Source: a virus (lineage: Duplodnaviria; Heunggongvirae; Uroviricota; Caudoviricetes). From it: a stretch of 64,000 bases of DNA. Location: IMG/VR virus record IMGVR_UViG_3300017987_005500; one strand, given 5' to 3'. This document shows positions 6,946 to 52,107 of this stretch, one piece after another. The notes beneath the pieces are model-generated. The model was not told the origin of the DNA. It was given only the letters and a program-made list of their open reading frames with translations, and searched no databases. Made by a program: the position numbers and the translations under genes. Each line of letters begins with the position of its first letter. Position 1 is the stretch's first letter.

Positions 6946-6947
6946 AG

Positions 6948-18651: not shown

Positions 18652-19255
18652 CTAATTTCTTCACTCCCATTTTTATAAGTTCCATTTGAAGCTTATTCGC
18701 TATTATTTTATCCATGTCCTTTAATATTTGTTCTTTAAATTTATCCTTAATACCCTCAATATATTTAGGATCTATACTAACTTCATGCTGTCCACCTAAA
18801 TCTTTAATTACAATTCCTTCTCCATTTGACACAACAGGAATTGGCATTACTGACGTATGTCCTGATGTTGCTACATTTGCTATACTATGATAATGAGTTA
18901 CGCCGGCATAACCACTTCCACCCGCTCCATAACCTCCATGAGCAATTCCACCCCCACCTCCCCCACCACCTCCAGCAAAAGCTTGAGCAATATTTGATGT
19001 TATATCTTCTTCATCGGATTTTTCTTTTCCAACTATTTTTTCAATCCAATTTAGTTTACCTTCTCCATTGCATTTTTTACATGTACTAATATTATCAGTC
19101 CCATGTATTTTTCCTGACCCATTACATTTGTCACATAATTCTTCACATGAGTCTTCATCTAATTTTGGTCTCTTAGTGAATTTTCTTATCCTGTCTGTCA
19201 TATTAGCTAATTTTTCTGCATTTATAGCTATAGAATGAGCTGTTGTTTTTGCCAT
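18641..19255 (-). CDS. Zinc-ribbon paralog family member 1 (Gly-rich C-terminal domain)
   Basis: 'CDKCNGSGK...CKKCNGEGKLNWIEKIVGK' followed by 'GGGGGGGGGIAHGGYGAGGSGYAG' and a unique C-terminus. Confidence 0.6.
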   Translation of the reverse strand: MAKTTAHSIAINAEKLANMTDRIRKFTKRPKLDEDSCEELCDKCNGSGKIHGTDNISTCKKCNGEGKLNWIEKIVGKEKSDEEDITSNIAQAFAGGGGGGGGGIAHGGYGAGGSGYAGVTHYHSIANVATSGHTSVMPIPVVSNGEGIVIKDLGGQHEVSIDPKYIEGIKDKFKEQILKDMDKIIANKLQMELIKMGVKKLDDN

Positions 19256-19256
19256 A

Positions 19257-19559
19257 TCATTTACCTTTAATAATATTAAACATATCTTTTAAGTCTACAG
19301 CAACTTCTTTACCATCACATTTAACATAACCGGGAGGTAGTCCAACAAGTGATGAAGTCATTTTTTGTGCTACTTCAAAAAATTCATATATGTCAGTTTT
19401 AGGTATTTTTTTACCTACTACATTTTCAACCCAGTCAACTTTTTTATGACCATGACATTTTGGACAAATAACTTTAATAACATTTTCATCGTCATCTTTA
19501 CCTGGAGGTAACCATCCTTCTCCATTGCATTTTGAGCATGATATTAATTTATCATTCAT
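19257..19559 (-). CDS. Zinc-ribbon paralog family member 2
   Basis: 'CSKCNGEGW...CPKCHGHKKVDWVENVVGKK'. Probable start 'MNDKLIS' (ORF-track start 19622 overlaps member 3). Confidence 0.55.
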   Translation of the reverse strand: MNDKLISCSKCNGEGWLPPGKDDDENVIKVICPKCHGHKKVDWVENVVGKKIPKTDIYEFFEVAQKMTSSLVGLPPGYVKCDGKEVAVDLKDMFNIIKGK

Positions 19560-19882
19560 TATAATAATACCCATCCATGTTTTGTAAATGTATAAGTGTT
19601 CCCATTTGTAGAGTCTTCCCATAATGATCCAAGAGATGCTGAAGTTGGAGGGTTATTTGATAATATATGAATAGCTAAACCATCATCTTTACCTACTACA
19701 TTTTCAACCCAATCAACCTTTCCTGTCCCTAAACATTTATCACATATCTCTACACTTGGGATTGAAGTTCCATCAAATGAACTAAACTCCATTTCTCCTG
19801 TTACTAACAAACGAGTTCCTTCACAACGAGAACATATCATTTCACCCTCTTTAAGGACGATAGGTGGCATATTATTCGACAT
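19559..19882 (-). CDS. Zinc-ribbon paralog family member 3
   Basis: 'CSRCEGTRL...CDKCLGTGKVDWVENVVGKDD'. Confidence 0.55.
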   Translation of the reverse strand: MSNNMPPIVLKEGEMICSRCEGTRLLVTGEMEFSSFDGTSIPSVEICDKCLGTGKVDWVENVVGKDDGLAIHILSNNPPTSASLGSLWEDSTNGNTYTFTKHGWVLL

Positions 19883-20443: not shown

Positions 20444-20851
20444 TTATAATGTTAGAATTATTGATATTGCTTCATGAGTTTTAAATATTTTAAATTTTAT
20501 ATTTATTTTATTAGAATATGGAGGGTCATTATCAATTATAAAATCTGTGATGATGAATCTTTGACTTATTCTACTTAAAAAACTATCAATTAAATTTATA
20601 ATCTTGGATATTGTTACACTATCCATAAAATGTCCTATAAAAGGTTCTATAATCTTATTTAAATTCCTATCAATAAAACTAACTGTACTTTTAATATTTA
20701 GGTTATTAATGTCATTATAACTGATAGGATATGACTTACCTACTACATTTTCAATCCAATCAAGAGTTCCTTCTCCATGACATTTTTCACAAATATTATT
20801 ATGAAAAAATCCTTCTCCATCACATTTAGAACATAGTATATTGTTTTTCAC
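20444..20851 (-). CDS. Zinc-ribbon paralog family member 6
   Basis: 'CSKCDGEGFFHNNICEKCHGEGTLDWIENVVGK'. Confidence 0.55.
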   Translation of the reverse strand: MKNNILCSKCDGEGFFHNNICEKCHGEGTLDWIENVVGKSYPISYNDINNLNIKSTVSFIDRNLNKIIEPFIGHFMDSVTISKIINLIDSFLSRISQRFIITDFIIDNDPPYSNKINIKFKIFKTHEAISIILTL

Positions 20852-22896: not shown

Positions 22897-23964
22897 TTAT
22901 TTTTCAACTCTTATAATTGTTTTTCGGTCTAACTGTAATTTCATATGTTCAATTACCATTTCCAATTGATTTATATATTTTTCAATTGACCCATCAATTG
23001 TAATTACTTTTTCTAAACTTCCAAAATGCATCTCAAGACATTCCATTAATAAATTCTTTATTTTAGGTTCATCAGGAGAATGTTGTAAATCACATTTAGT
23101 ATATAATTCTTCTAATGACTTTTCTTTATCTTCAAAATATTGAGTGATTGTTTCTTTTTTCCAGTCACCTCTGCGAATGGATTTAAGTTGCTCTCTATTT
23201 CTTTCAAGATCAAGATCATGTTCAGTCATTATTTGCTCAACTTCATTTATTAGTCTTACTACATGATAAGCAAATTTAACATCATATCCATGTTTCATTA
23301 TGTCAGGTAATCGTCTTGTTAATTTTTTCTTTCCACCTTCTGTCAATTCTAAAAATAATCTCCCGACATATTTTACTTCAGCAATTGGAAATTTTTCTTT
23401 TACTTCTTCAATATTAAAAGTGACAGGGTTGATATCCAATTTATCACATTCTTCAATAAAAGGTAAAATCTTTTTTGATTGCATTTTATTAAGTTGAGAA
23501 TATGCATACCCTTTGAATCTATGCCATGCTCCCTTATGTAAAAATAACTTTCTGTTTTCTCTTATATGCTCACCAATTTGAGTCGAATGTAATATACATC
23601 TTCTTGGTACAAATAAGGAGTCAATCATATTAGGATTATTTTGCATACATAATTGAAAATACTTTGTAATGCTATGAATATTTAAATCATATTCTTTGCC
23701 TTCTTCCTTATCCATAATATGATGTATTTGAAATTGTTCAAACCTTATAGGTTGTTTTCCAAAACCATGAATATAACCTGATAGATGAGGAAATATCATA
23801 TCTTTATAAGGAATTGAAAATCCATAAATATCCATATCCGACGTATCATTGCTACATCCATATGCAACACTTCCCATTAATACTTCATAATGAACATTAC
23901 TTTTCATATGAGCAGGAGGATTGATTAACTGCTTTTTCATTAATTTATCTATGATTGATCCCAT
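22897..23964 (-). CDS. Pol-beta superfamily nucleotidyltransferase (355 aa)
   Basis: 'GSVAYGCSNDTSDMDIYGF' matches the GS-x9-13-DxD nucleotidyltransferase signature. Confidence 0.5.
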   Translation of the reverse strand: MGSIIDKLMKKQLINPPAHMKSNVHYEVLMGSVAYGCSNDTSDMDIYGFSIPYKDMIFPHLSGYIHGFGKQPIRFEQFQIHHIMDKEEGKEYDLNIHSITKYFQLCMQNNPNMIDSLFVPRRCILHSTQIGEHIRENRKLFLHKGAWHRFKGYAYSQLNKMQSKKILPFIEECDKLDINPVTFNIEEVKEKFPIAEVKYVGRLFLELTEGGKKKLTRRLPDIMKHGYDVKFAYHVVRLINEVEQIMTEHDLDLERNREQLKSIRRGDWKKETITQYFEDKEKSLEELYTKCDLQHSPDEPKIKNLLMECLEMHFGSLEKVITIDGSIEKYINQLEMVIEHMKLQLDRKTIIRVEK

Positions 23965-24872: not shown

Positions 24873-25712
24873 TTAGTTAGTGCCTTCCTTTAATTCAATA
24901 TCTTCTTTCATACGAAGAACTTTTGAAATATCAAATGCATAATCATATACATGAAGACCTTTACATGTAGCAATGATTTCTCCATTTTCAACTCCAATAC
25001 ATGCTGCACAATATTGTTTAAGATTTTCAATTGCTGCTAAGTTTGCAGGGAAACCATTAAACAAATCCCATGATCTGAAGTAAGGATAAAAGTGTAAAGC
25101 ACCATCTTGAATTCTTGTGTCAATTGATCTGAGACAAGGAGGGTCTTGAAGAAGCATATCAGTCGGATGAGCGATCTGAAGAACCATTTGGTTATTTCGA
25201 TAACCCTTATTTTTATAAGTCCAAATAAGTAGTTCAGTTTGATTTAAATAACAATCATCAGGATTATCTTTATTGATTGATATTATTTTATCATTTTCCC
25301 AAATATCTTGTTCACTTACTACAATATTTTTTTCATTGAGATATGATTTTATGTAATCAATAGATATTGGATATTTGGTAAGACGTTGTCCATACGTATA
25401 AGATTCACCCTCTTCAACTTCTCCGGACATAAGATATTCAATATAAGACTTTGTAAATTCTCCTCGTCCATAAAGATAATCTTCATCACATGGATCAGGA
25501 ACTCCATAATGAGGTTCTATCTTTGGAACAAGAGGTAATGTCCAAGGTTGTTTAATTTGAATTGTTACCCAATCAAACTCAAGTCTTTTTTGTCCAGCAT
25601 AAGAACCTCTGTCAATTGTATAAACAAATGCTGCATCAGGTTCTAAAATTTTATACAATGTTTGAAACCATGCGTCACCTAAATCTCTTGCTACTATTTT
25701 CGTTGTCTTCAT
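24873..25712 (-). CDS. Thymidylate synthase family enzyme (ThyA-like; thymidylate synthase or deoxypyrimidylate hydroxymethylase)
   Basis: 'LQDPPCLRSIDTRIQDGALHFYPYFRSWDLFNGFPANLAAI' parallels ThyA 'PPCH..QFYV.dgkLSCQLYQRSxDvFLGvPFNIASY' (Cys nucleophile, RSxD, G.P.N.A). Confidence 0.6.
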   Translation of the reverse strand: MKTTKIVARDLGDAWFQTLYKILEPDAAFVYTIDRGSYAGQKRLEFDWVTIQIKQPWTLPLVPKIEPHYGVPDPCDEDYLYGRGEFTKSYIEYLMSGEVEEGESYTYGQRLTKYPISIDYIKSYLNEKNIVVSEQDIWENDKIISINKDNPDDCYLNQTELLIWTYKNKGYRNNQMVLQIAHPTDMLLQDPPCLRSIDTRIQDGALHFYPYFRSWDLFNGFPANLAAIENLKQYCAACIGVENGEIIATCKGLHVYDYAFDISKVLRMKEDIELKEGTN

Positions 25713-26202: not shown

Positions 26203-26409
26203 TTATTCATTTATTGCAATTGAAGAGTTAGCATGCATTACACACTCTTGTAGTCTTCTTATTGCAATTGTCTTTTCAGCGCTGTCAGGACATGTATCGT
26301 CAATATGTTTTGCAAAATTTTTTGCATTTTCTCTTATTGACTCATATCTTTCAGTCTGATCTCCTTTTGGAGGATGATAAGTGAATAAATTATCAATGTC
26401 TTTAATCAT
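26203..26409 (-). CDS. Hypothetical protein (68 aa)
   Basis: Small ORF; RBS 'aaaggtgaaat'. Confidence 0.35.
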   Translation of the reverse strand: MIKDIDNLFTYHPPKGDQTERYESIRENAKNFAKHIDDTCPDSAEKTIAIRRLQECVMHANSSIAINE

Positions 26410-26684: not shown

Positions 26685-26948
26685 TTATTTAGATTTAATT
26701 TGTGGAACTGGTTTTCTTAAAATGGGTACGCCATCTTGTAAAATAGATCCACATTTTTTACATTGAACAGCGTCAATTGGGACATTCTTAGGACCTGTCT
26801 TTGGTGTATCAAGTCGTCTAAGCACAATTGCATATTCCCAAAGCATTCCACCACATATACATTTAACGATTGGTAAATCTTCCAGATTGAAAGGACCATC
26901 TGGATTTTTATTTTCAGTTTCTTTACTCGCTTCCTTTTTCTCCGTCAT
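26685..26948 (-). CDS. Small zinc-ribbon protein (87 aa)
   Basis: 'CICGG...CKKCGS' Cys pairs. Confidence 0.4.
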   Translation of the reverse strand: MTEKKEASKETENKNPDGPFNLEDLPIVKCICGGMLWEYAIVLRRLDTPKTGPKNVPIDAVQCKKCGSILQDGVPILRKPVPQIKSK

Positions 26949-27228
26949 TTTCTACCTCCCTAAGGATTGCATAAACTTCAGTATTACCAAGGACTTTCAT
27001 TAATTTTTCATCAACTATAATGTCCATACCAAAACTTGCATGAAACATTACAATGTCGCCCTCTTGAATTGCTTTATCACATTCAACACCTACTGAAAGA
27101 ACTTTTCCATATCGTTGAGGTTCCTGAGGTTGAGCTGTTTCAGGAATGATCAATCCACCAGGTGTTACATTACTTGTTTCCATTAATTCGACAACTAACT
27201 TATCTGCAACTGCAATAATTTGTTTCAT
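26923..27228 (-). CDS. groES: GroES-like co-chaperonin (cpn10)
   Basis: 'GGLIIPETAQPQEPQRYGKVLSVG...EGDIVMF' matches GroES 'sGIviPdtAkekpqeGeVvAvG...vGDkVlf'; 101 aa. Confidence 0.65.
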   Translation of the reverse strand: MKQIIAVADKLVVELMETSNVTPGGLIIPETAQPQEPQRYGKVLSVGVECDKAIQEGDIVMFHASFGMDIIVDEKLMKVLGNTEVYAILREVENDGEKGSE

Positions 27229-27464
27229 CTTTCATTTTTCCTTTCTTGGTTGCTTCGTTTAATAGACTCAGACTTCTTTCGATTTTTTCTAACACTACTT
27301 TTTTCGTGAAATCTTCGTTGATGAACTTCTTTTATTATACCTGCTTTTGATACTGTCCTTTTAAATCTTCTAAGGAGACTATCAAAATGTTCTCCGGATC
27401 CTGATATAACTCCAATACCTTTTGAGTCAGATATCAGTCTTCCTTTTTTATTATATAAAGTCAT
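27225..27464 (-). CDS. rpsU: Ribosomal protein S21 homolog
   Basis: 'FDSLLRRFKRTVSKAGIIKEVHQRRFHEKSSVRKNRKK' aligns with bacterial S21 'vALRRFKRsceKaGvlaEvRrReFyEKPtteRKRak'; 79 aa, basic C-terminus. Confidence 0.65.
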   Translation of the reverse strand: MTLYNKKGRLISDSKGIGVISGSGEHFDSLLRRFKRTVSKAGIIKEVHQRRFHEKSSVRKNRKKSESIKRSNQERKNER

Positions 27465-28146
27465 AAATTAAATGTTCCCGTGAGCTTATATTCATTTTAT
27501 GTTTATCTGCTAAATCAAACACAATAGGAGCATTCTTTAATATCTCCTCTCTACTCTTTCCTTTTGGCATCAAATATGTAATTGAAGATAAACCTAATAA
27601 ATTTAAATGTAAAAGAAATTCCATCATAAATTCATTTTTTTCTTCAGCTACAACTTTAATAAAAACTAAATCTTGATCTTCATCAAGTATATATTTAAAT
27701 TCATCTACTCTGGTTTTTTCAGCATCTAAATCAGATAGATTAAATATTTTTGGAGAATAAATAATTTTTACATTTTTATCATTAGCTCGTAAATCTCCGA
27801 GAAATGTTGTTAAGTTACATCCATTCGTTTCAATGTTTGCTACCTTATAATCCAATGTATTCAACATATTAAGAGTTGACTTATAATTTTCACTATATAA
27901 AGGTTCTCCACCTGTGATCATAAGTCCACAATTCTCTTTATTAATTGTGTCTTGAATATCTTTGATTTTATATTCAGCTGCTGATGATACTCTCATTTTA
28001 ATTAGAGTATCACACCATTGACATGGATTCCCATTAACAACTCTATCACAATCTTTAAATCTCAATAATAACATTCTTCTGCCACTATCCGCGCATTCTC
28101 CCTGCCACGTTACTATGTTTTCGATAAGCTTCACAGTTTCACTCAT
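27451..28146 (-). CDS. queE: 7-carboxy-7-deazaguanine synthase QueE (radical SAM)
   Basis: 'VTWQGECADSGRRMLLLRFKDCDRVVNGNPCQWCDT' parallels QueE 'TIQGEG..vGq.tvFvRtaGCd..CsWCDs'. Also 'ITGGEPL' and 'ETNG' motifs. Confidence 0.65.
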   Translation of the reverse strand: MSETVKLIENIVTWQGECADSGRRMLLLRFKDCDRVVNGNPCQWCDTLIKMRVSSAAEYKIKDIQDTINKENCGLMITGGEPLYSENYKSTLNMLNTLDYKVANIETNGCNLTTFLGDLRANDKNVKIIYSPKIFNLSDLDAEKTRVDEFKYILDEDQDLVFIKVVAEEKNEFMMEFLLHLNLLGLSSITYLMPKGKSREEILKNAPIVFDLADKHKMNISSREHLIYDFI

Positions 28147-28197: not shown

Positions 28198-31100
28198 CTA
28201 AAATGTTAAAACGTTTGTTTTTTGTTTTACTTCAGTAATTGGTTTAAGTAATAAATCGTGTCTATCTTTAAATGCGAATTCTAAATTTCCATTTAAGTCA
28301 GGTAATATATATGGTGGTAAGCATGGTTCATCATCTGGAATTGCTATGACTTTAAATTTATTTCCATCAGCTATAAATTTATCATATTTTTTAATTACAT
28401 CTTTTGGAGCTTTATCTCTATCAATTCCTAAAACTCTAAACATATATGACTTGGAACCTTGATTGTGAATATGATACATTACTTTGTTCCAAGCTTCCAT
28501 AGCTTTCACACCTTGAGGGATTGTTTTATAATCATTAATCTTTTTACCATATGATACAGGTCTTGCAATAGTCTTATCACCTTTCATAATTAGACTTTTA
28601 AATTCTTCTTCTTTTTGTTGAATATATGAGAAAATTTCATGCAACGATACATTCTCTGATTTCAATATTATATCAAGAAGTTCTTTCATAAACTCTTTTG
28701 ATTTACTTGGATAATCAGATCTCTTTATCTCAATACCCATATAGTTAATGTCATCAACTTTTTTACCTTCTTGATTAGTTACTCTTATTGAATATCGTTT
28801 CTTAGCTAAGAATAAACCTCTTGATATAATAAGCTCATTCTTTAACTCTAATCTATTTTTTTCAAATGGAACATTATGCTTTGCTACCATTTCTTTCATA
28901 ATTGTTTCATTCAAATAAGTTTGAATTTCATTACACCAACTTAATATTTGCTTTTCAGTTTTATCTCCTTTAAAGTCTTGAAAGCAACAAAAAATTGAAT
29001 CAGTATCGCCTGTTACAATATGAGGAGTTGATAATTTTCTTTTTTGCATTTCTTTTGGATCATACATCTCTTTCTTTGTAAGAGGTTTTGCTCTCTTTAT
29101 TTTTTGCCCTGTTCTTAAATGCTCCATAAATTCATTACCTTCAACAATACTCCATTTAAGAGCTTCCTGCCCACCCAATGTAATTGCAGTTGCACAACTC
29201 CTATCAAAGAATCTAAATATCTTATTTGCAATTGCTCCATATAATGAATTAGCAAGAACCTTATATGAATACTGTCTTGAATAATAAAAGTCAAAACCTG
29301 AATCATCTTTAGCTTCTTTTGCTTTAAACATCTTACCTTTATATATTTTACGAGAACCTAATAACATTGTAAGAATCCCACTATATACAGATTCAACATT
29401 TTCATGGTTATCATATACACAACCATTAATTGTAACAAGCCATTTTTTCTTATCAATATCTCCTAATAAATCTTTTGTATTAATTCTTTCAGGAATCCTA
29501 TCACACATTGGATCCATTATTATATCAATTTCATCTGGAAGACCTTCTCTATTATATGCTACATCATAACCGAGAGATTCATCTTCTAATTTCAGAATAA
29601 AATTATTTGGACCAATGTTATAAGTTATCATAAGACTCGGATATAGAGATGTGAAGTCAAAGTCAGTTATATCATCATATATTCCAGGAATTGGATCATA
29701 TACAAATGCTCCAGGATATTTTTCTTTTGCAATATGAGGATCTCCATTCTTAGACGCAAGACCTCTTTCCTTCAAATATGACACAGTTAATGAATCAACT
29801 TGACCCAATACTGCAGAACCTGAATCAAAACTTGTATTACAAATTGTCCTTATCTCATTTATAAAATTAACATGACTTAACTTATCTTCTAATTTCTCAA
29901 GAAGAACAACGTCCCTAATATTATACTCAATTAATTTATTTAATGCTTTTGTATACATCTCATGAAAAGGATAAGGCATTTGTATTTTGGTCATCTTTAC
30001 TTCAACTTGACCAATAAACCCTAATTGATAATTTTCCTTTTTTGTAAATGTAAACATCTTATATAAATGCATCTGATCTAATGGGACACAACCTACTAAA
30101 TTACAAATGAATCGAGAACCTTCAACATAAAATTCTCCAAACTTTGACATACTCCCCTGAGGAATTTTTAATCTTTTAAGTCTATTGAATATATACTCAA
30201 AGTCAAAGGCAACTGCATTCCAACCTGTAATAAAATCAGGATCAACTTCTTTAAAATCTTTAATGAATTGTTTTATTAATGTTAATTCATTTTTAAATAT
30301 TTTTAACTCAACACCTTTCTGCTCAATTATTGGTTCAGCTCCATTATCAATAACATAAGTTGTATATTTTTTATGATAAGCAGTTGTAAGAAGATTGATT
30401 GGAAACTTAGCTTCTTTCGGATCTGGAAATACTTGAACACCTTTTGTGTCGATCTCAATATCAATAAACATTATATTAAAATCAGTTCTCTTAGCTTCTC
30501 CAGTGGATTGAAGATAATAATCCATTGCATGCTTCTGAGTTATTTTTATATCTCCTTCATATGTTTTCTCAGAATCAAGAACAGCTCTTTCTCTATAATG
30601 ACATTGACCTTGATATAATTGATCATAAGGAATTATCTTATCTCTTTTAACACCATCTGGACAAGTATAAAAATAATAATTATCACCTTCTTGATGATAG
30701 ACTTTCTTATTATCTTTATCTCTAAATATGTACAATACTTTATTGGTTTTCATTATATATTGTACATCAACTAATCTATATTCATCAGTATAAAATTTAT
30801 CTGGAATTTTATAATTATAAACACCTTTTTTAAGATTCTCTGTTTTAATTGGAGCTTTCTTTTTATCTGTAAATGTCTTTCCTAAAAATTCAGCTGCTGT
30901 TTTAATATCTTCCTCAAATTTATCAGCATAACTTTGATTTCGATTTACGAAACTTGGGTGAACAGTTACTAAAACATCTCTATCTTCCCATTTAAAAAAT
31001 TGACCTCTTAAATTAGTTATTCCTTTTTCTGCAATTCCAAATGCTTTCATAGGACTTGATCCCATTACAATTATCAATTTTGGGTTACAAGTTTTAATAA

Positions 31101-31437
31101 TATCAAAACAATTTGTTTTACATTTTTCAATTGTTTCGTCATTTGGATTTCCTGTATTTCCATCTTCGTCTAAGGTCAAACATAATACACAATTTGTCAG
31201 TAACCATTTAAAGTCTTTCTTTATATATTTGTCAAAATGTTTTCTAAAAGTCTTTCCTGCTTTTCCAATTAAAGGAACACCTCTTTTAATCTCATCCTTG
31301 CCAGGATTTTCAGATACCACAACAACTTCAACTTTTGTAAGATCTGCTTTTGAGTTAGTGTCCATAATACATGATGGAGCTTCTAACAATTCACATGTTG
31401 AGCAATCAGCTAATGATTGTCTGAGACTTTTTGCCAT
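28198..31437 (-). CDS. Family B DNA polymerase with N-terminal uracil-DNA-glycosylase-like domain
   Basis: 'HIVTGDTDSIFCCF' PolB motif C (DTDS). Exonuclease-like 'MFIDIEID' (Exo I). N-terminal 'SENPGKDEIKRGVPLIGKAGKTFRKHF' resembles family-4 UDG motifs (GEAPG / GxPFvGxAGxlL). 1079 aa. Confidence 0.85.
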   Translation of the reverse strand: MAKSLRQSLADCSTCELLEAPSCIMDTNSKADLTKVEVVVVSENPGKDEIKRGVPLIGKAGKTFRKHFDKYIKKDFKWLLTNCVLCLTLDEDGNTGNPNDETIEKCKTNCFDIIKTCNPKLIIVMGSSPMKAFGIAEKGITNLRGQFFKWEDRDVLVTVHPSFVNRNQSYADKFEEDIKTAAEFLGKTFTDKKKAPIKTENLKKGVYNYKIPDKFYTDEYRLVDVQYIMKTNKVLYIFRDKDNKKVYHQEGDNYYFYTCPDGVKRDKIIPYDQLYQGQCHYRERAVLDSEKTYEGDIKITQKHAMDYYLQSTGEAKRTDFNIMFIDIEIDTKGVQVFPDPKEAKFPINLLTTAYHKKYTTYVIDNGAEPIIEQKGVELKIFKNELTLIKQFIKDFKEVDPDFITGWNAVAFDFEYIFNRLKRLKIPQGSMSKFGEFYVEGSRFICNLVGCVPLDQMHLYKMFTFTKKENYQLGFIGQVEVKMTKIQMPYPFHEMYTKALNKLIEYNIRDVVLLEKLEDKLSHVNFINEIRTICNTSFDSGSAVLGQVDSLTVSYLKERGLASKNGDPHIAKEKYPGAFVYDPIPGIYDDITDFDFTSLYPSLMITYNIGPNNFILKLEDESLGYDVAYNREGLPDEIDIIMDPMCDRIPERINTKDLLGDIDKKKWLVTINGCVYDNHENVESVYSGILTMLLGSRKIYKGKMFKAKEAKDDSGFDFYYSRQYSYKVLANSLYGAIANKIFRFFDRSCATAITLGGQEALKWSIVEGNEFMEHLRTGQKIKRAKPLTKKEMYDPKEMQKRKLSTPHIVTGDTDSIFCCFQDFKGDKTEKQILSWCNEIQTYLNETIMKEMVAKHNVPFEKNRLELKNELIISRGLFLAKKRYSIRVTNQEGKKVDDINYMGIEIKRSDYPSKSKEFMKELLDIILKSENVSLHEIFSYIQQKEEEFKSLIMKGDKTIARPVSYGKKINDYKTIPQGVKAMEAWNKVMYHIHNQGSKSYMFRVLGIDRDKAPKDVIKKYDKFIADGNKFKVIAIPDDEPCLPPYILPDLNGNLEFAFKDRHDLLLKPITEVKQKTNVLTF

Positions 31438-31439
31438 AT

Positions 31440-31470
31440 AAAATATCCTTTTATGTTTTGTTACAAATAA
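31440..31470 (-). promoter_or_regulatory. Conserved upstream motif TTTGTAACAAAA (promoter-like) upstream of polymerase gene
   Basis: Minus reading 'atattaTTTGTAACAAAAcATAAAAGGAtattttataATG'. Confidence 0.4.
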
Positions 31471-31718
31471 TATTTTTAATATCCTTTTTATGTTTAAAGT
31501 AATACTGCTATATATATTTATTAGTGAAGAGATGAAGAGTTTGTTAATTTTGTTTTACAGTTAGTGTTTTAGTGTTAATCTGGGCAAGGGAAGGAGAATT
31601 ATTATGAATCACTTTTATTAACTTTTTTAAATCTTAAGGAGAGATGACATGTGTACAGTTACTATGGAAATTGGTAAGAACTTAGACTCGACTGTAAATG
31701 GGAGGAGGTGCTTTAATG

Positions 31719-32318
31719 GATCAAACTGAGTGTCAAGAAGCGTGTAGAGTTTTGAATATTGATGATATAGACCCGCATAATTTAGACGTAAATCATGCAA
31801 ATGACATAATTCAAGTATTTTTTGATATACTTGAAGAAGTAGAAGACCCCGACGAAAAATTTAACATATCATTAATAAAAGCAAAAAATCAACTCTTATA
31901 TGAAATTATCAAAAATAAAAGCAATTGTAATAATGTTTTTGAGTTTGATCTTGACTTCAGTAATAGCATGAATAAATGCAAATACTGTGGTGGTGGAGGA
32001 ATTAAACCTGTTGTTGAGCAAGGCATTGTTAAAAACATGGATAAATGTCCTGATTGTTTGGGATCAGGAATTCAACATAAACCATGTAGAGAATGTCATG
32101 AAACAGGATGGATTGGTCCGAATCATTGTTCGATATGCAATGGTAGAAAGAGAATACCTTTCAGGAAAAACGCAAAGAAAAAATGTTCACGATGCGGCGG
32201 TAATAAATACATTGATCGAAAGGTAAGTACAGGAAGAATTCTTTCTCACATTACATGTACAGTATGTAAAGGTTATGGTGTGATTGGATGGGAAAAGGCA
32301 TGTTCACCAAAAACCTAA
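31719..32318 (+). CDS. DnaJ-type cysteine-rich (CxxCxGxG) zinc-finger protein
   Basis: 'CKYCGGGG...CPDCLGSG...CRECHETG...CSICNGRK...CSRCGGNK...CTVCKGYG' repeated CxxCxGxG units. Likely start ATG 31719 after GGAGG. Short upstream ORFs lie in the leader. Confidence 0.5.
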   Translation, partial: DQTECQEACRVLNIDDIDPHNLDVNHANDIIQVFFDILEEVEDPDEKFNISLIKAKNQLLYEIIKNKSNCNNVFEFDLDFSNSMNKCKYCGGGGIKPVVEQGIVKNMDKCPDCLGSGIQHKPCRECHETGWIGPNHCSICNGRKRIPFRKNAKKKCSRCGGNKYIDRKVSTGRILSHITCTVCKGYGVIGWEKACSPKT

Positions 32319-32378
32319 ATTAATTTAAGAAATATAATGGACGTCAGAGATTACACGTGGATAGCTGACGTCCATTTT

Positions 32379-32882
32379 TCATATATCAACCATTGAAAAG
32401 TTTTCACTTATATATGATTTGAAACTTATTTTTTTTGGTTTTTTCTTTTTTGTCTTTTTAACTTTTGGAACTTCAAGTCCTAAAGTTTCATATATCTGCT
32501 CTCTGTCTTTTGATCTAGAAATTATTTCAGATAATAATAAAACATCGTCATTTTTTAAAGATACTATTTTTTCTCTTAAAATGTCATATAACTTATCTTT
32601 ACTTGGTCGCCTTGTATAAAATGAGCTCCCTTTCCTAACCTTATAATCAATCACACATCTCTTTATAAATATTAAAAATTCTTCCTTATCAATACTAAAT
32701 ACATGATAAGTATTAAGATACGTATTCAAATATTTATTCAAAGGTCCATTATTCATAAACATAGTTAATAAGTTTCTATGTGTAACTGGAGAACCTGGTT
32801 TTGTTAAAATAGCAGGAACTGGAGATTTTCGATTACCATCCCATAACCAAGTATTCAATTGAGACCATACTGAGGTAGACAT
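32379..32882 (-). CDS. Hypothetical protein (167 aa)
   Basis: ORF preceded (minus strand) by the TGTAACA motif and 'AAAAAGGAAAA' RBS. Confidence 0.5.
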   Translation of the reverse strand: MSTSVWSQLNTWLWDGNRKSPVPAILTKPGSPVTHRNLLTMFMNNGPLNKYLNTYLNTYHVFSIDKEEFLIFIKRCVIDYKVRKGSSFYTRRPSKDKLYDILREKIVSLKNDDVLLLSEIISRSKDREQIYETLGLEVPKVKKTKKKKPKKISFKSYISENFSMVDI

Positions 32883-32912
32883 ACATTTTCCTTTTTAATA
32901 TGTTACAAATCA
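32883..32912 (-). promoter_or_regulatory. Conserved upstream motif (TGTAACA + A-rich/SD)
   Basis: Minus reading 'gatttGTAACAtattaaaaAGGAAAAtgtATG'. Confidence 0.4.
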
Positions 32913-32925
32913 TATAAATTTTATC

Positions 32926-33714
32926 TTATAATGAAGTTTCAGTTGATGTTTGAATATGAGGTTTCATATTTTTTCTCCAAGTTCTTATATCAAAATTTTC
33001 TTTATTCAATCCTGGAGGAAATGCGCAGTCCATCTCATGTAACATTTGATGTGCTCTTTCAGTTGGTAAATGGCCAGATCTTACATTTCTTATTATTTCT
33101 ATCATTTTCCATACTAATGGATCATCTTGAATATCCTTGGATAGACTTTTATGTACATCAGATAATCGTTTAACTTCTTTCCAAATTCTTTTTTTCTCTT
33201 CCTTTTCACATTCCTTTGCAATAGAGATAAGACTATTTATTGATGTTGAAATACTTTTCATTTGAGCATGAAGTCTATTATGAGATCTTATTAAAACAAC
33301 ATTTTCAAATCTGTTATTAAAAGGATTTCCATCAATATGATGAAGATCAAGTCCATTCTCTCGACATCCTCTGAAAATAAAATCAAGTCCATGATGAAAA
33401 TTCCAAATCAATGTACCTATTGTTATAGTCAAAGTCTTATCATTTGCTCTATTACTTCTTGTGTTAAGAATAGGATGCATAAACTTTCGCTTATCTTTAA
33501 CCCTTATCACTGGGCAATATTTGACAGGATGCCATAATGAGCAATTAGGAGGAAGTTCTCCATACTCATGTGGGCATGTTGCGCAAATAGTTTCTCCAAA
33601 TGGAAGATAATAACCATATATTTCTCCAGTTATTCTTTCCACTCTTCTTGGGTTAAAATTGTCTTTTGTGTTGTTGTAGACGTCGTGTAATTGAGTCCAG
33701 TCTGGCATTTTCAC
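32926..33714 (-). CDS. HNH endonuclease (262 aa)
   Basis: 'LDLHHIDGNPFNNRFENVVLIRSHNRLH' HNH box; N-terminal Cys/His cluster 'CATCPHEYG...CSLWHPVKYCP'. Confidence 0.55.
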   Translation of the reverse strand: MKMPDWTQLHDVYNNTKDNFNPRRVERITGEIYGYYLPFGETICATCPHEYGELPPNCSLWHPVKYCPVIRVKDKRKFMHPILNTRSNRANDKTLTITIGTLIWNFHHGLDFIFRGCRENGLDLHHIDGNPFNNRFENVVLIRSHNRLHAQMKSISTSINSLISIAKECEKEEKKRIWKEVKRLSDVHKSLSKDIQDDPLVWKMIEIIRNVRSGHLPTERAHQMLHEMDCAFPPGLNKENFDIRTWRKNMKPHIQTSTETSL

Positions 33715-33761
33715 ATCTCCTTATTTTAGGTTATAAAAAAAGATAAACGTCGTTATTGAGT

Positions 33762-34103
33762 TTATCTGTAATATTTAATTATTACAACATCTCCTGATTT
33801 TATTAATGAATCTAAATCATTAGACGATAATATTTGAGAAGGATTTAATATCTCTGATATATGATATTCTATATTAGGTTCTAATTGAATTCCAATATCT
33901 TGTATCGTTATAGGATAATTTGTTTTATTTTTTGCAGTGAGATGTAAAATCTTTTCAGGAGCTTTACCTACAATATTTTCAACCCAATCAAGTTCCCCCG
34001 CTCCATTGCATTTTGAACACGCTTGCTTTATAGGTTTTGTCGTGTCCCATCTTTCTTGAGGAATATATATCATTCCTTCTCCATCACATTTAGAGCATTT
34101 CAT
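33762..34103 (-). CDS. Zinc-ribbon paralog family member 8 (dispersed copy)
   Basis: 'MKCSKCDGEGMIY...CSKCNGAGELDWVENIVGKAP'. Same core as the 18.6-21.1 kb array, with a unique C-terminus. Confidence 0.55.
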   Translation of the reverse strand: MKCSKCDGEGMIYIPQERWDTTKPIKQACSKCNGAGELDWVENIVGKAPEKILHLTAKNKTNYPITIQDIGIQLEPNIEYHISEILNPSQILSSNDLDSLIKSGDVVIIKYYR

Positions 34104-35046
34104 TTTTCATTATCTCAATCATATTAGGATAAAAATTATCAACTTCATCCTGACATATCATTTCAGGAACAGGTAAACTTCCTATTAATATTTTTCGACA
34201 TATTTGAGCTGCTTCAATATAATCATCATATAAATATTCATTTGGAAGTATCTCAGGGAAACATAATGCTCGAGGAGCTACGGGAATACATCCACAACGA
34301 AGAGCATCCATAATTGTATAATTGAAAGTATCTTCTTGTGTTGAAATGAAAAGGATTTTTGATTGTGAAAGGAATCGAGAATATTCTTCAGGATCTGTAA
34401 ATGTTTTTCTTATAATTTTTGAACCAACTTGTCTTTCAACTTTTTTCTCTAATTTCAAATTTACTTTTTGAACACAAGGTCTTGATACAGAAATTATATT
34501 ATTTACTTTTGGTAATGGAAAATTTGTTATTATTTCATTGGGAGGTTTTGGTAATCTAACAACTTCAACATTATTCCAACCCAATTTTTCTTTGTGATAA
34601 TGAGATCCTACAAAGACCTTATCAAACATTTTTGAAAGTCCTGTCTCAACTTTAAATTTAGGTCTTCTTACATCTGAAAAGAAATCATATTTATTTTTCG
34701 CTGTTGCATGACAAAAAATAAATTTCTTTCCTATAAACCTTTTTGTGAAAAGTATATTAGGAAATATACCAGGAAAACTTATATCAGTACAAAATAATAC
34801 ATCACCAGGTTTTTCATAAATTTCAACATAATCTTCAATTTGTGCAATCTCTAATACTGCAGAATTATGTACACTTGAAAAGTCTTTAAAATGTGCTCTG
34901 TCATGAGCAAGGTCCTCAATAATATCTCCGCCAAGAACAACCACATCATCAAAATATTTTTTGAATACATCTTTAAATTCGGTATACCACCATTTCGTAT
35001 ATCTTCCATCAGTCGGAAGTTGAGGTACAAAATACATAGTTGCCAT
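34090..35046 (-). CDS. Glycosyltransferase (GT-B/GT4-like)
   Basis: 'FISTQEDTFNYTIMDALRCGCIPVAP' resembles the GT1/GT4 'E-x7-E' donor-binding motif (EgfGlvllEAmacGlPVIa). Confidence 0.45.
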   Translation of the reverse strand: MATMYFVPQLPTDGRYTKWWYTEFKDVFKKYFDDVVVLGGDIIEDLAHDRAHFKDFSSVHNSAVLEIAQIEDYVEIYEKPGDVLFCTDISFPGIFPNILFTKRFIGKKFIFCHATAKNKYDFFSDVRRPKFKVETGLSKMFDKVFVGSHYHKEKLGWNNVEVVRLPKPPNEIITNFPLPKVNNIISVSRPCVQKVNLKLEKKVERQVGSKIIRKTFTDPEEYSRFLSQSKILFISTQEDTFNYTIMDALRCGCIPVAPRALCFPEILPNEYLYDDYIEAAQICRKILIGSLPVPEMICQDEVDNFYPNMIEIMKNEML

Positions 35047-35258
35047 TATTTTTTCCCTTTTAAATTCTTTTTAAATTCATTCATCATTTTTTCCATATAT
35101 TTTGTTGTAGATGATTTAAATGCTAAGGTCAATTCCATTTTAATATCTTCTACTGAGTACGTATTATTCACATCTAATTTGTTCACTCTGTCAACAAAAT
35201 CATCATATGCTTGCGCTATAATGACTATTTGGTCGAATTTGTTTTGTTTAGATTTCAT
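35046..35258 (-). CDS. Hypothetical protein (70 aa)
   Basis: Small ORF, ATGA-coupled. Confidence 0.35.
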   Translation of the reverse strand: MKSKQNKFDQIVIIAQAYDDFVDRVNKLDVNNTYSVEDIKMELTLAFKSSTTKYMEKMMNEFKKNLKGKK

Positions 35259-35286
35259 GGCTAAATATATTACTATACGTATAACG

Positions 35287-35832
35287 TTAAAGGGAAATTG
35301 TGTTAATACATCGCTGGATAATTGATGTTGTTGAAATGTTAGAAACTAAATTGATAGATATAACATCTCCCCCATTTTCTTTTACAAAATCTTCTCCCAC
35401 AATCTTTCCCTCCCAATCTTTTCCTTTAACTAAGATATCAGGTACAATTCTCTTAATTAGGTTAATAGGCGTGAGTTCTTCAAATATGAATATATAGTCA
35501 ACCATTGGAAGCGCTGACAGTGTATTTCGCCTTATACTCTCGTCAAGTATAGGTCTTGTATCACCTTTTAATTGTTGGATTGATGTGTCAGAGTTCAATC
35601 CAACAATTACAATATCTCCAGCTTTTTTACAATCATTCAATAAAGTCAAATGACCTAAATGCAATATATCAAAACATCCATTTGTAAACACGACTTTTTT
35701 ATCTTTGCGTCGTATTTGAAAATGCATCATATGTCTCTCATTTAAATATTGACTTACCATCTTCATTTGAATTTTCCTATTTTTTGAATACCCATTTATC
35801 ATAACCACTGAATAGAAAATACTTATGTTCAT
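35287..35832 (-). CDS. Cytidylyltransferase-family nucleotidyltransferase (HIGH motif)
   Basis: 'VVFTNGCFDILHLGHLTLL' is the (T/H)xGH motif of the TagD/RfaE-II cytidylyl/adenylyltransferase family; 181 aa. Confidence 0.6.
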   Translation of the reverse strand: MNISIFYSVVMINGYSKNRKIQMKMVSQYLNERHMMHFQIRRKDKKVVFTNGCFDILHLGHLTLLNDCKKAGDIVIVGLNSDTSIQQLKGDTRPILDESIRRNTLSALPMVDYIFIFEELTPINLIKRIVPDILVKGKDWEGKIVGEDFVKENGGDVISINLVSNISTTSIIQRCINTISL

Positions 35833-36316
35833 ATTTCCATAAACTACTTTGTTTATGATAACATGTATCTAGTAATATTTTTTTCCTTTCAGATTGAGAA
35901 CATTCGAACTTAAATGGAGCATTCATTTCAGTGATATAAAATGTAACATCATATCCTGCTCTTGCTAATTGTTCTCCTCCAATTCCTTGAAGTCTGTGGT
36001 CTGGGTGTGTCTCATATATAGGGTGGGGAAAATAAAACATATTGGTGGGATGAAGAAATTTTGAGGGAATTGTATTTAAAAATAATTGAATTTTAACATT
36101 GGTGTGATTTCTTAACTCTGCTGCTTCAGCTCTTCTTTCATTATCAACGTCAGATGTATATATTACAATTGGTGATATTGAATTGTCATTTAATAATTCA
36201 AAGCAACCTATTATTTCATCGTCGGGATGAGGTGCTACAATAATTGTTTCAAATTGAGGTCCTGGTTTCTCTTCTTTTTTCTCGCCATTCAATGGTATTA
36301 ATTTATTTTCAGTCAT
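35777..36316 (-). CDS. LmbE/PIG-L family deacetylase
   Basis: 'IVAPHPDDEIIG' matches the PIG-L 'AHPDDE' zinc-binding motif. Confidence 0.6.
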   Translation of the reverse strand: MTENKLIPLNGEKKEEKPGPQFETIIVAPHPDDEIIGCFELLNDNSISPIVIYTSDVDNERRAEAAELRNHTNVKIQLFLNTIPSKFLHPTNMFYFPHPIYETHPDHRLQGIGGEQLARAGYDVTFYITEMNAPFKFECSQSERKKILLDTCYHKQSSLWKYEHKYFLFSGYDKWVFKK

Positions 36317-36350
36317 ACTATTTCCTTTTTTATATTTTGTTACAAAAAAA
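36317..36350 (-). promoter_or_regulatory. Conserved upstream motif (TTTGTAACAAAATATAAAAAAGGAAA)
   Basis: Minus reading 'ttttttGTAACAaaaTATAAAAAAGGAAAtagtATG' directly upstream of the LmbE-like gene. Confidence 0.4.
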
Positions 36351-36373
36351 ATAAATGGTATCTCAATTTAAAA

Positions 36374-36450
36374 TGGAACCCCCGACACGAATCGAACGTG
36401 CATAAAGCGGCCTTAGAAGGACCGTGCTGATCCATTTCAGCTACGGGGGC
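36374..36450 (-). tRNA. tRNA-Arg (anticodon TCT)
   Basis: Hand-folded cloverleaf: acceptor gcccccg/cgggggt, D arm gctg..cagc, anticodon stem-loop 'cggtc-cttctaa-ggccg', T arm gcacg-ttcgatt-cgtgt; CCA encoded. Confidence 0.65.
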
Positions 36451-36492
36451 ATGGAGCCGGCACGTGGATACACACGCGGTTCACCCGGCATA
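36451..36492. other. Isolated GC-rich hairpin-forming segment adjacent to tRNA-Arg
   Basis: 'ggagccggcacgtggatacacacgcggttcacccggc' (~65% GC in a ~30% GC context); ccgg..ccgg and cgtgtg/cacgtg inverted segments. Confidence 0.3.
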
Positions 36493-36493
36493 A

Positions 36494-36717
36494 TCATTTT
36501 ATTTCATATAACGTAACACGTGTTATATGAATTTTTGGAGAATTATTACTATTAAGTCTACATCGTTCACATACTTTTCTCGGCATTCCATTGCCAGACC
36601 ATTTCATTCGTCGTAAATAAATAGACTCGCAACGGGGACATTTACATTCTATTCTTTTTGCTTGAATTATTTCTACTGAAAAGTCTAAATCGTATCCGTC
36701 ATATTTAGTTACCATAA
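36494..36717 (-). CDS. Small zinc-ribbon protein (~74 aa)
   Basis: 'CKCPRCES...CERCR'. ORF-track N-terminal extension to 36784 runs through tRNA-Thr and is rejected; probable start 'MVTKYDGY'. Confidence 0.4.
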
Positions 36718-36723
36718 TTTTAA

Positions 36724-36799
36724 TGGAGCCTATGAGAGGAATCGAACCCCCAACTTTCTCCTTACAAGGGAGACACTCTGCCAATTGAGTTACATAGGC
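36724..36799 (-). tRNA. tRNA-Thr (anticodon TGT)
   Basis: Acceptor gcctatg/cataggc, D arm actc-aattggca-gagt, anticodon arm 'tctcc-cttgtaa-ggaga', T arm with two G.U pairs; CCA encoded. Confidence 0.65.
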
Positions 36800-36987
36800 A
36801 TTAAGGTTGATGAATGGGAAAGGATTCCTCCAATCCCATTCATATAATTAAATGTTAAATAATAAGAGAATTACTAATATATGAAAACCAAAACTTGACA
36901 TAAGAATATAAGTTATTACAAATGATAAATTTTTTTCATTCTTCCATATATGTTTTTCAACAAACTCTTTTATAGACATATATTCAC

Positions 36988-38019
36988 CTACATTGAAAAA
37001 TCGGCAGCATCAGTAAAGTTTGCTGCATTAGGATTTTTCATCCATGCTGCAGTTGTTACCATACTTACATATGGGAACCCATCTTCTTTATGTAATGCCT
37101 GTCCAATAAACTGACGATTTTTTATTGTCTCAAAAGATATATTCATTTCTTGTTGCTCAACATCTCTTTGAAACTTAGTTTTAATGAATCCTTTAAGAAC
37201 ATTTTTGACTCTTTCATCTTCCTTTGCTTCAACTTTCTTAAGTTCATCAAGGATGTCCTTAATAGAGTTTATGTTAGCTGATGCAAGAGGAACCCTCATT
37301 TTAGGAGGCGGTGTGTTCTTACCAAATTTCTTTGCAAACCATATAGCAACACTCCCATAGCTTTCTCTGATAAGAGGTTCCCATATTGATTTCCAATACT
37401 TATAATTCGGAGTTCTTTCAACACCAATAACATCTCCGTTTAAAAGGATTATAGCACCAACCATCTTTGGAACTATTTCAAATTCAGCTATAAATGTGCT
37501 AAGCTGTTTATCAAAACCTTGTAGAAATAATTCAAGATGACCTTTATTTAAAAGACCCAATTCTTGATTGAATTCTTTAATAACTGGCCACAATTCCTGA
37601 TATGAAGTACTGTTTTTTGTCATTGTTGCAAATTCTCTCATCGCCCAAGGTAAAATAGACATATGATAATCAGAGTCAGATCTTATACTTCCACCCTGAG
37701 AGTCTTGAATACAACGAGCTTGCTTTGTTGTATAACTCCCTCTGCCTTTCATAAAAATACCTTTAGGAGATGAATGATTTTGTGCAGTTTGTTTAGACAT
37801 TACAGCTCCACCGGTAGGAAATATTGTTGGAGCATTACCCAAGTTTTTCACATTTAATGTACCATAATCTCCGGTACTTGCTTCAATATTTCCAATTGGT
37901 GCTTCAAAACTATCATCGACAATGTCTGATAATAATGGGATGATTTGCATAAATCCCACTGACTGCATTCTTCCAGGTGTGCATCCTTTTAAGATGCTTG
38001 CAATTGTGATTTCTTTCAT
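36988..38019 (-). CDS. Hypothetical protein (343 aa)
   Basis: Long ORF, ATGA-coupled to upstream vWA gene. Confidence 0.5.
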   Translation of the reverse strand: MKEITIASILKGCTPGRMQSVGFMQIIPLLSDIVDDSFEAPIGNIEASTGDYGTLNVKNLGNAPTIFPTGGAVMSKQTAQNHSSPKGIFMKGRGSYTTKQARCIQDSQGGSIRSDSDYHMSILPWAMREFATMTKNSTSYQELWPVIKEFNQELGLLNKGHLELFLQGFDKQLSTFIAEFEIVPKMVGAIILLNGDVIGVERTPNYKYWKSIWEPLIRESYGSVAIWFAKKFGKNTPPPKMRVPLASANINSIKDILDELKKVEAKEDERVKNVLKGFIKTKFQRDVEQQEMNISFETIKNRQFIGQALHKEDGFPYVSMVTTAAWMKNPNAANFTDAADFSM

Positions 38020-52069: not shown

Positions 52070-52107
52070 TTAGAGTGTCCTGCTCTAAACCACTGAGCTA
52101 CTGGGGC
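52032..52107 (-). tRNA. Suppressor tRNA (anticodon CTA, reads UAG amber)
   Basis: Acceptor gccccag/ctggggt, D arm 'gctc-agtggttta-gagc', anticodon arm 'ggaca-ctctaaa-tgttt' (two G.U pairs), T arm 'gcagg-ttcgaat-cctgc', CCA encoded. Confidence 0.5.

Follow-up and report, generated by a model that had tools for sequence, protein, structure and literature searches.

A virus-restricted glycosyltransferase and an LmbE-type hydrolase accompany 7-deazaguanine genes in many phages

The DNA stretch analyzed here, 64,000 nt of IMG/VR record IMGVR_UViG_3300017987_005500 (hereafter the window), derives from a large tailed phage and encodes at positions 34090–36316, on the minus strand, a GT-B glycosyltransferase (GT), an LmbE/PIG-L-fold hydrolase and a nucleotidyltransferase. 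Comparison with related loci identifies the LmbE protein and the GT as the conserved unit. The explanation that we favor, tentatively and with a likelihood just short of even, is that these two proteins form a virus-specific cassette tailoring a 7-deazaguanine DNA-modification pathway, such that a sugar, possibly de-N-acetylated, would be carried on a deazaguanine-derived DNA base.

Relatives of the GT were gathered by tblastn and clustering from 79 fetched IMG/VR loci and from contexts in further collections. Dereplication at 90% identity yielded 64 GT lineages, and neighboring open reading frames (ORFs) were assigned to families with Pfam, NCBIfam, and PHROGs. The fetched locus contains QueE, FolE, QueC, or DpdA in 54 of the 64 lineages, and the exceptions are mostly truncated contigs. 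Neighboring families include QueC (E-value 8.6e-35), FolE (GTP cyclohydrolase I, 1.6e-40), and a DpdA-type transglycosylase (phrog_887, 5.6e-36), together with a QueE-like radical-SAM protein, QueD (recognized by its CxxxHGH motif), a short-chain dehydrogenase/reductase (SDR), a second radical-SAM protein, a methyltransferase, and ThyX. A profile of the DpdA family found no sequence match in the PDB.

Besides the clade of the window, two further clades define the genomic setting of the GT. In clade B, whose DNA polymerase is just ~27% identical to that of the window, the gene order is QueD–QueE–FolE–(SDR)–radical SAM–(methyltransferase)–QueC–c5dom–LmbE–GT–DpdA–clamp, where c5dom denotes a new domain of ~125 residues. 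Clade C comprises distant GTs (23–27% identity) in QueE–FolE–GT4–GT–(DpdA or PolB) arrays with a gene carrying the DpdL motif; the GT is paired there with a second GT4 enzyme of 464 aa. Several unrelated phage backbones repeatedly show the LmbE–GT pair with a QueC-type PP-loop ATPase on one side and DpdA on the other, and the GT gene adjoins, and often overlaps, that of DpdA in several lineages.

The association is also seen from the opposite direction. A scan started from DpdA (80 loci) found GT, LmbE, and c5dom all present with the clade-B-type DpdA and all absent from canonical QueE–QueC–FolE–DpdA loci. The QueC that accompanies the cassette is short (181–194 aa), and 12 of its 14 distinct sequences are devoid of the C-terminal CxxCxxC zinc motif; the QueC of cassette-free loci measures 218–260 aa and carries the motif in 30 of 40 cases. 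When the scan was started from c5dom (78 loci), the short QueC was nearly always found upstream, and most loci had LmbE–GT downstream or elsewhere on the contig, with c5dom and LmbE–GT separated by 25–50 kb in several 200–250-kb contigs of the window's clade. Across the loci, LmbE is accompanied by a PP-loop ATPase, in the form of the short QueC, a PAPS-reductase-like protein, or Gat-QueC, and the GT is accompanied by DpdA. The c5dom profile has no match in the PDB or in GenBank phages. A relation of c5dom to QueC, or to a 143–155-aa protein of phages X1 and BCSR5, was considered and rejected, as hhalign found none.

In the window's clade, DpdA was not found within 10 kb. Present in this clade only, and never together with DpdA, is a nucleoside-2-deoxyribosyltransferase-like (NDT-like) domain that lies beside c5dom or is fused to it (loci L006, L010, L012, L019, L020, L032, L037–L040, and L047; for example L038:5924–6745). 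Two of these proteins are also fused to a MazG-like N-terminus. The domain may represent an alternative route in which the base is exchanged at the nucleotide level. One 277-kb relative encodes, ahead of the short QueC, two more GT-like ORFs of 294 and 343 aa (L038:343–2271), a hint that glycan chains may be longer in some lineages.

The same family is present in cultured phages. A tblastn search of the GT against 50,697 phage records retrieved deazaguanine-cluster GTs only, and all inspected matches adjoin deazaguanine genes. Xanthomonas phages X1 and BUDD and Burkholderia phage BCSR5 carry FolE, a PAPS-reductase-like PP-loop ATPase, LmbE, a small ORF, GT, DpdA, a DpdL-motif gene, and QueE. 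Acidovorax phage ACP17 has QueD, FolE, gp122, DpdA (gp123), GT (gp124), DpdL (gp125), and QueE. The "hypothetical" gp124 of ACP17 (L252, NC_041997.1, 5998–7026) and gp167 of PA5oct (L253, NC_071039.1, 6998–8059) both belong to the GT family, and each is encoded between the DpdA-like gene and the DpdL-like gene of a published deazaguanine cluster. A similar context is seen in the Pseudomonas PA5oct group, Sinorhizobium phage Phosso, and Synechococcus phage BUCT-ZZ01.

Xanthomonas phage PhiXhv-15 encodes Gat-QueC, a canonical LmbE, and the GT in that order, and here the LmbE partner of the GT is annotated as BshB2. The product of the PhiXhv-15 gene at 5609–7132 (L172, PV764602.1) consists of a class-II amidotransferase joined to QueC, although its annotation reads L-glutamine-D-fructose-6-phosphate aminotransferase, and GlmS as a supplier of hexosamine was accordingly rejected. 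A "cytidyltransferase" near the X1 cluster is a nicotinamide mononucleotide adenylyltransferase-like protein and not a counterpart of the nucleotidyltransferase of the window.

The segment 34090–36316 is filled exactly by four consecutive, closely packed minus-strand ORFs, which are real genes, with 168 homologues found for the GT and 151 for LmbE. No terminator-like site was found within 31400–37100. The first gene (35777–36316) encodes the LmbE/PIG-L-fold metal-dependent hydrolase, the second (35287–35766) the nucleotidyltransferase, the third (35046–35258) a 70-aa protein, and the fourth (34090–35046) the 318-aa GT. The earlier note on this DNA had described three consecutive genes; its assignment of the families was right at that level, and it did not mention the 70-aa ORF, which lies between the nucleotidyltransferase and the GT and whose stop codon overlaps the GT start by 1 nt.

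By sequence, the GT is only distantly connected to curated families. The Pfam model Glycos_transf_1 (PF00534) matches with an E-value of 0.03 and 14.3 bits, under the gathering cutoff of 26.4, and a precomputed GT1-type Pfam match exists for just 3 of the 120 GT homologues listed. The predicted structure (predicted local distance difference test 92.8, predicted template-modeling (TM) score 0.90) displays the two Rossmann domains of the GT-B fold. A Foldseek search of the PDB with this model returned 144 matches with E ≤ 0.001 and a TM-score of ~0.6 at the top, in which all the best are GT4 GT-B enzymes: BshA (1.8e-8), followed by tetrahydrobiopterin glucosyltransferase, GlgM, TarM, and MshA. 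The model and these matches bear out the GT-B glycosyltransferase call of the earlier note.

In the C-terminal domain, Arg189, Lys194, and Glu265 are identical across all clades, including members of 23% identity. By analogy with GT4 enzymes, Arg189 and Lys194 would contact the donor phosphates and Glu265 the donor ribose or sugar. The N-terminal domain residues Arg15, Tyr16, Phe56, Asp82, Asp88, Gly93, Asp121, and Glu134 are likewise kept across all clades, and the conservation of these acceptor-side positions suggests a common acceptor. No relative of the GT was detected among 185,579 bacterial and archaeal species genomes; judged by these sequence searches, the family is virus-restricted.

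The LmbE protein (179 aa, with a conserved core of ~155 aa) is also weakly assigned by its own sequence: Pfam PIG-L (PF02585) gives an E-value of 0.0095 and 16.9 bits against a gathering cutoff of 28.2, and phmmer against the PDB gives ~0.3. Among its relatives, 29 of 32 match PF02585 weakly, at best with an E-value of 2.9e-6. Residues His30, Asp32, Asp33, His104, His107, and Arg108 are invariant in 32 family sequences. The five His and Asp residues belong to the (A)HPDD(E) and HxxH zinc-binding and catalytic motifs and align with those of Dac deacetylases. LmbE-type diacetylchitobiose deacetylases are the sole PDB matches of the family profile, and the window protein has the expected alpha/beta fold. 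Fold, motifs, and profile thus uphold the LmbE/PIG-L family membership proposed earlier, and de-N-acetylation would be the activity by analogy.

In 45 of the 64 lineages LmbE is located upstream of the GT, and in 13 of these the two reading frames overlap or have no more than 50 nt between them. The stop and start codons of the two genes often overlap, in the manner of translationally coupled genes. The pairing recurs in PhiXhv-15 with a different, canonical LmbE subfamily. The nucleotidyltransferase accompanies the GT in only 4 of the 64 lineages (the window, L001, L005, and L013), as well as on short contigs of the window's nearest relatives, and no residues were found that separate the GTs of loci with this gene from those of loci without it. 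Together with the restriction of the GT to viruses, this pattern defines LmbE and GT as the conserved unit.

The nucleotidyltransferase had been described earlier as a HIGH-motif cytidylyltransferase. The family assignment is right: the protein matches PF01467 with 62.5 bits and carries a HIGH-type motif and a C-terminal STT motif. The cytidylyl specificity does not stand. TIGR02199 (rfaE domain II/HldC) gives the protein 176.1 bits, under the cutoff of 181.5, a score obtained on an over-long ORF of 181 aa, and the models for TagD (glycerol-3-phosphate cytidylyltransferase), pantetheine-phosphate adenylyltransferase, and RibF score far below it, so that the second of these, which the earlier note had named as the identity that would overturn its proposal, does not apply. 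The closest structure is PDB 5x9q (2e-27), named "putative cytidylyltransferase" by its depositors, which we take to be Burkholderia HldC. Many bacterial proteins annotated as heptose-1-phosphate adenylyltransferase are 50–60% identical to the window protein, which shares its HIGH-type and STT motifs with the stand-alone bacterial HldC. We therefore assign it as an HldC-type ADP-heptose synthase, predicted to transfer adenylyl and not cytidylyl groups. As listed, with 181 aa, the ORF overlaps LmbE; the actual start is the ATG at 35766, 10 nt past the LmbE stop and behind an AGGA, and independent gene calls on other assemblies give the same protein as 159 aa.

In bacterial ADP-heptose synthesis HldC works with GmhA, HldA, and GmhB. 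None of these was found among the ~60 window ORFs scanned, which leaves HldC alone in a phage DNA-metabolism operon; the host could supply them. Its occurrence in only 4 of the 64 GT lineages marks HldC as an add-on, and at 50–60% identity to bacterial HldC it looks like a recent bacterial acquisition; in the window's sub-lineage, and there only, it has been placed between LmbE and GT and would either offer an alternative donor or act independently. The proposal of a minimal three-gene pathway that makes and attaches a modified sugar is thus not sustained: the GT shows no residues that discriminate loci with HldC, and ADP-heptose offers no obvious substrate for an LmbE deacetylase.

The 70-aa ORF has a ~50% identical, 71-aa counterpart at the same position in L170, a 69%-identical relative, and in L171; it has no match in family scans. 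Many relatives encode between LmbE and GT an ~80-aa, apparently three-helix membrane protein (L027:9391–9633, L002:5260–5502, L045:9554–9865) that may be a small transporter. Equivalence of the 70-aa ORF with this protein was rejected, as the two are unrelated.

A tRNA at 52032–52107 (minus strand) has the anticodon CTA, of the amber-suppressor type, and is labeled Pyl by ARAGORN. TAG is the stop codon of 5 of the 61 long ORFs of the window, the LmbE gene among them. Read-through of the LmbE TAG would add 12 residues only and would not create a fusion with HldC, which is in another frame.

In the window itself, the sole gene of the 7-deazaguanine pathway is a QueE-like radical-SAM protein (27451–28146, minus strand), which matches PHROG 2076 ("QueE-like") with an E-value of 1.6e-20. 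Its best NCBIfam matches are QueE families, all below cutoff. The gene shares a BLAST cluster and a hidden Markov model with QueE genes that adjoin QueD and FolE in other clades, and it follows the polymerase gene in almost every relative within the window's clade. A CxxxHGH motif at 19257–19622, which resembles that of QueD, belongs to a DnaJ-type zinc-finger protein and was rejected as QueD.

Several observations weigh against a role of the cassette in deazaguanine tailoring. DpdA, FolE, QueD, QueC, and c5dom were not found in the window or in the ~5 kb inspected past its right end, which adds pyrimidine-synthesis genes only, and the window has no NDT-like gene. The lone QueE-like gene scores under every curated QueE cutoff. 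The 244-kb contig L005, the closest large relative with HldC, is not among the loci of the c5dom scan. Because the window offers only the QueE-like gene and L005 is missing from the c5dom scan, the link of this lineage to deazaguanine is by homology and is weaker than in other lineages. Part of the association could reflect shared genome architecture, because deazaguanine clusters often adjoin replication genes. A DpdL-type gene is present in the clusters of ACP17, PA5oct, X1, and clade C, and its predicted product is unsubstituted 7-deazaguanine, which would offer no obvious acceptor at C7. ACP17 and PA5oct carry the GT without LmbE, and the GT might serve DpdA as a non-catalytic partner. A survey of jumbo phages (PMC7824862) reports that some carry just a subset of deazaguanine genes and may depend on the host for the remainder.

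If the cassette does tailor deazaguanine, the GT would transfer an N-acetylhexosamine-type sugar from a host nucleoside-diphosphate sugar to a deazaguanine-derived base, either in phage DNA or as a free-base precursor. LmbE would then strip the N-acetyl group and expose an amine, by analogy with the pairs MshA/MshB, BshA/BshB, and PIG-A/PIG-L. The amine may remain free as a cationic decoration of the DNA. Alternatively, and more speculatively, it might be acylated by adenylated 7-carboxy-7-deazaguanine supplied by the truncated QueC, in a reaction resembling that of MshC, which acylates glucosaminyl (GlcN)-inositol.

The combination of a GT4 enzyme with an LmbE enzyme recurs in the mycothiol, bacillithiol, glycosylphosphatidylinositol (GPI), and aminoglycoside pathways. 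Like MshA/MshB, BshA/BshB, PIG-A/PIG-L, and BtrM/BtrD, the phage pair has the same two folds, adjacent genes, and intact LmbE motifs, with BshA as the best match of the GT. In contrast to these pairs, the phage proteins lie far outside the curated families, under the Pfam gathering cutoffs, and are found in viruses only, and LmbE is reduced to a minimal core. Their context is DNA modification, not the synthesis of thiols, lipids, or antibiotics.

A close functional parallel is provided by the phage systems in which FolE, QueD, QueE, and QueC act with DpdA, followed by tailoring by DpdL, DpdM, or DpdN (Hutinet 2019; Cui et al. 2023). DpdA is the signature protein of phage 7-deazaguanine DNA modification (Cui et al. 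2023). Homologues of the cassette lie inside such clusters, ACP17 included, and DpdM and DpdN provide a precedent for tailoring genes added to a core pathway. Unlike these systems, the window has the QueE-like gene only, and its clade has the NDT-like gene where others have DpdA. A second parallel is huimycin from Kutzneria albida (huiA–G), in which the GT HuiG adds N-acetylglucosamine (GlcNAc) to a preQ0-derived base. There, preQ0 genes are clustered with a GT and a methyltransferase, and some clade B loci also have a methyltransferase. Huimycin differs in being a free secondary metabolite, made without a DNA-insertion enzyme and without a deacetylase.

These features are consistent with a more specific proposal, which is possible but which we regard as doubtful: an undescribed branch of hypermodification that yields a sugar- or amino-sugar-bearing 7-deazaguanine, built by the short QueC-like PP-loop ATPase, c5dom, the minimal LmbE, and the GT, together with DpdA. 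In the jumbo-phage clade of the window, the place of DpdA may be taken by the NDT-like enzyme, which may act ahead of replication. Reconstitution of the ACP17 modification with DpdA and DpdL failed in the study of Cui et al. (2023), who suspected missing enzymes; the GT, encoded between these two genes, may be such a component. Eight 7-deazaguanine derivatives were reported in phage DNA in that study, none of them glycosylated. The full-text literature searched contains no glycosylated deazaguanine in phage DNA and no description of the GT, the LmbE hydrolase, c5dom, or the truncated QueC as parts of a Dpd system.

To our knowledge, every known case of DNA glycosylation in phages concerns a pyrimidine. 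If it exists, a glycosylated or aminoglycosylated deazapurine would be a new class of base; it would matter for how phages evade restriction, CRISPR, and glycosylase defenses, for work that sequences or clones DNA modified in this way, and for enzyme tools. In ACP17, the PA5oct group, X1, BUDD, BCSR5, PhiXhv-15, Phosso, and BUCT-ZZ01 the cassette is annotated as "hypothetical"; as these phages are cultured, the prediction is directly checkable by mass spectrometry. The comparison also flags two unannotated families, c5dom and the short QueC, and a possible DpdA-independent route in jumbo phages.

A host-directed function appears unlikely. In this case HldC would raise the level of ADP-heptose, and GT and LmbE would remodel lipopolysaccharide, capsule, or another envelope glycoconjugate, for example in superinfection exclusion, or would make a free bacillithiol-like GlcN conjugate or a huimycin-like deazapurine glycoside. 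HldC is indeed an enzyme of the lipopolysaccharide-core pathway with very near bacterial copies, BshA, the best fold match of the GT, has an LmbE enzyme, BshB, as its partner, and the NDT-like gene that the window's clade has instead of DpdA could yield a free nucleoside. The jumbo-phage survey reads clusters of HIGH-type nucleotidyltransferases and GTs as modifiers of surface polysaccharides (PMC7824862). This proposal is hard to reconcile with the absence of the GT family from prokaryote genomes, with the lack of HldC in 60 of the 64 lineages, and with the contact or overlap of GT and DpdA genes in several lineages. Moreover, the genes lie among replication and deazaguanine genes rather than sugar or envelope genes, and the scanned ORFs include no flippase, glycan polymerase, membrane GT, or equivalent of BshC or MshC.

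DNA as the target, one of the possibilities raised in the earlier note, remains plausible; its suggestion of hydroxymethyl-pyrimidines by the logic of T4 does not agree with a cassette that tracks 7-deazaguanine genes, and we consider it very unlikely. Under that scheme the GT would glycosylate 5-hydroxymethyl- or 5-hydroxy-pyrimidines made through a ThyA homologue (24873–25712, minus strand), and LmbE would trim the sugar. The homologue lies 9 kb from the cassette, is syntenic in many members of that clade to which the window belongs, and has Asp at the position of ThyA Leu143, like T4 dCMP hydroxymethylase. However, it keeps the equivalent of Asn177 (uracil type) and Asp169, without the D169N signature of 5-hydroxy-dCMP synthases, and its best family is the archaeal-type thymidylate synthase. 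In relatives it alternates with ThyX and never occurs together with it, as expected of a plain supplier of dTMP, and in clades B and C and in the cultured carriers no such gene lies near the cassette. T4 alpha- and beta-GT and the DNA arabinosyltransferases of RB69 and DLP3, which act on 5-hydroxycytosine, are likewise GT-B enzymes encoded among nucleotide-metabolism genes, and those of RB69 and DLP3 share BshA and MshA as best PDB matches with the GT. The latter differs from them in being unrelated by sequence to GT63 and GT72 and in having no PHROG or Pfam match to the T4 alpha/beta-GT or Aat-type families, no accompanying hydroxymethylase, and an association with a purine pathway. As a separate observation, the ThyA homologue is divergent and contains large insertions.

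Modification of RNA is highly improbable. The vertebrate mannosyl-queuosine transferase is of the GT4 type, and by likeness to the eukaryotic mannosyl- and galactosyl-queuosine transferases the cassette might glycosylate a queuosine-type 7-deazaguanine at tRNA position 34. The window has 16 tRNA genes, including tRNA-His(GTG), and a set of RNA-repair genes, and the DpdA-like neighbors are homologous to tRNA-guanine transglycosylase and are so labeled in PHROGs. The neighbors of the cassette are, instead, genes for DNA polymerase, clamp, and primase, and QueA, QueG, and QueH, needed for queuosine, were not seen. In relatives the tRNA genes do not adjoin the cassette and other genes take their place, so that the proximity to a tRNA cluster mentioned in the earlier note is incidental. 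The phage DpdA proteins studied to date place deazaguanines into DNA (Cui et al. 2023).

Glycosylation of virion proteins has almost nothing to recommend it: phage GTs can glycosylate capsids and the window encodes T4-like capsid genes, but the cassette lies at least 20 kb from the structural genes, in the replication module, and is not associated with structural genes in any of ~240 loci examined.

The window has a low GC content (~31%) and encodes a T4-like capsid, a portal, a prohead protease, a DnaB-type helicase, and a family-B polymerase. The phage genome is at least 308 kb, and proteins identical to the products of 34090–36316 are found on contigs of up to 308 kb. A DNA-level search of the region against GenBank phages returned tRNA matches only and no similar phage, and an exact 48-mer query had no match in the metagenome collection. 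The protein at the left end of the window was likewise absent from the records searched.

Between the GT and the polymerase lies p167 (32379–32882, minus strand), a conserved 167-aa neighbor in the window's clade that is directly downstream of the GT in 41 loci. It has no family match in profile scans, and an hhalign comparison with DpdA was negative. An ORF for an HNH endonuclease (32926–33714, minus strand) and an adjoining zinc-finger ORF (33762–34103, minus strand) separate the GT from p167. Both are missing in L170 and are therefore probably a mobile insertion. The zinc-finger ORF is one of five small ORFs with DnaJ-type CXXCXGXG repeats in the replication region; the others are at 31698–32318, 18641–19255, 19257–19622, and 20444–20851.

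The family-B polymerase (28198–31437, minus strand) has an N-terminal uracil-DNA-glycosylase domain, and according to precomputed Pfam assignments this fusion is kept in all relatives of the same clade. Directly downstream of the QueE-like gene, precomputed Pfam assignments on the identical contig L086 place ribosomal protein S21, Cpn10 (GroES), and an ORF with an Acb2/Tad1 hairpin, resembling anti-CBASS/Thoeris sponges; this group occupies ~27225–27464, 26923–27228, and ~26203–26409 on the minus strand. Interleaved with the tRNA genes is a set related to RNA repair and nucleotide conflict (1675–3036, 22897–23964, 36988–38019, 56948–57475, 59262–59765, and 61052–61885), which comprises a CCA-adding enzyme with an HD domain, RlaP, ARPP-1, an AAA_33 kinase, HAD_SAK_2, and an R2K ATP-grasp protein.

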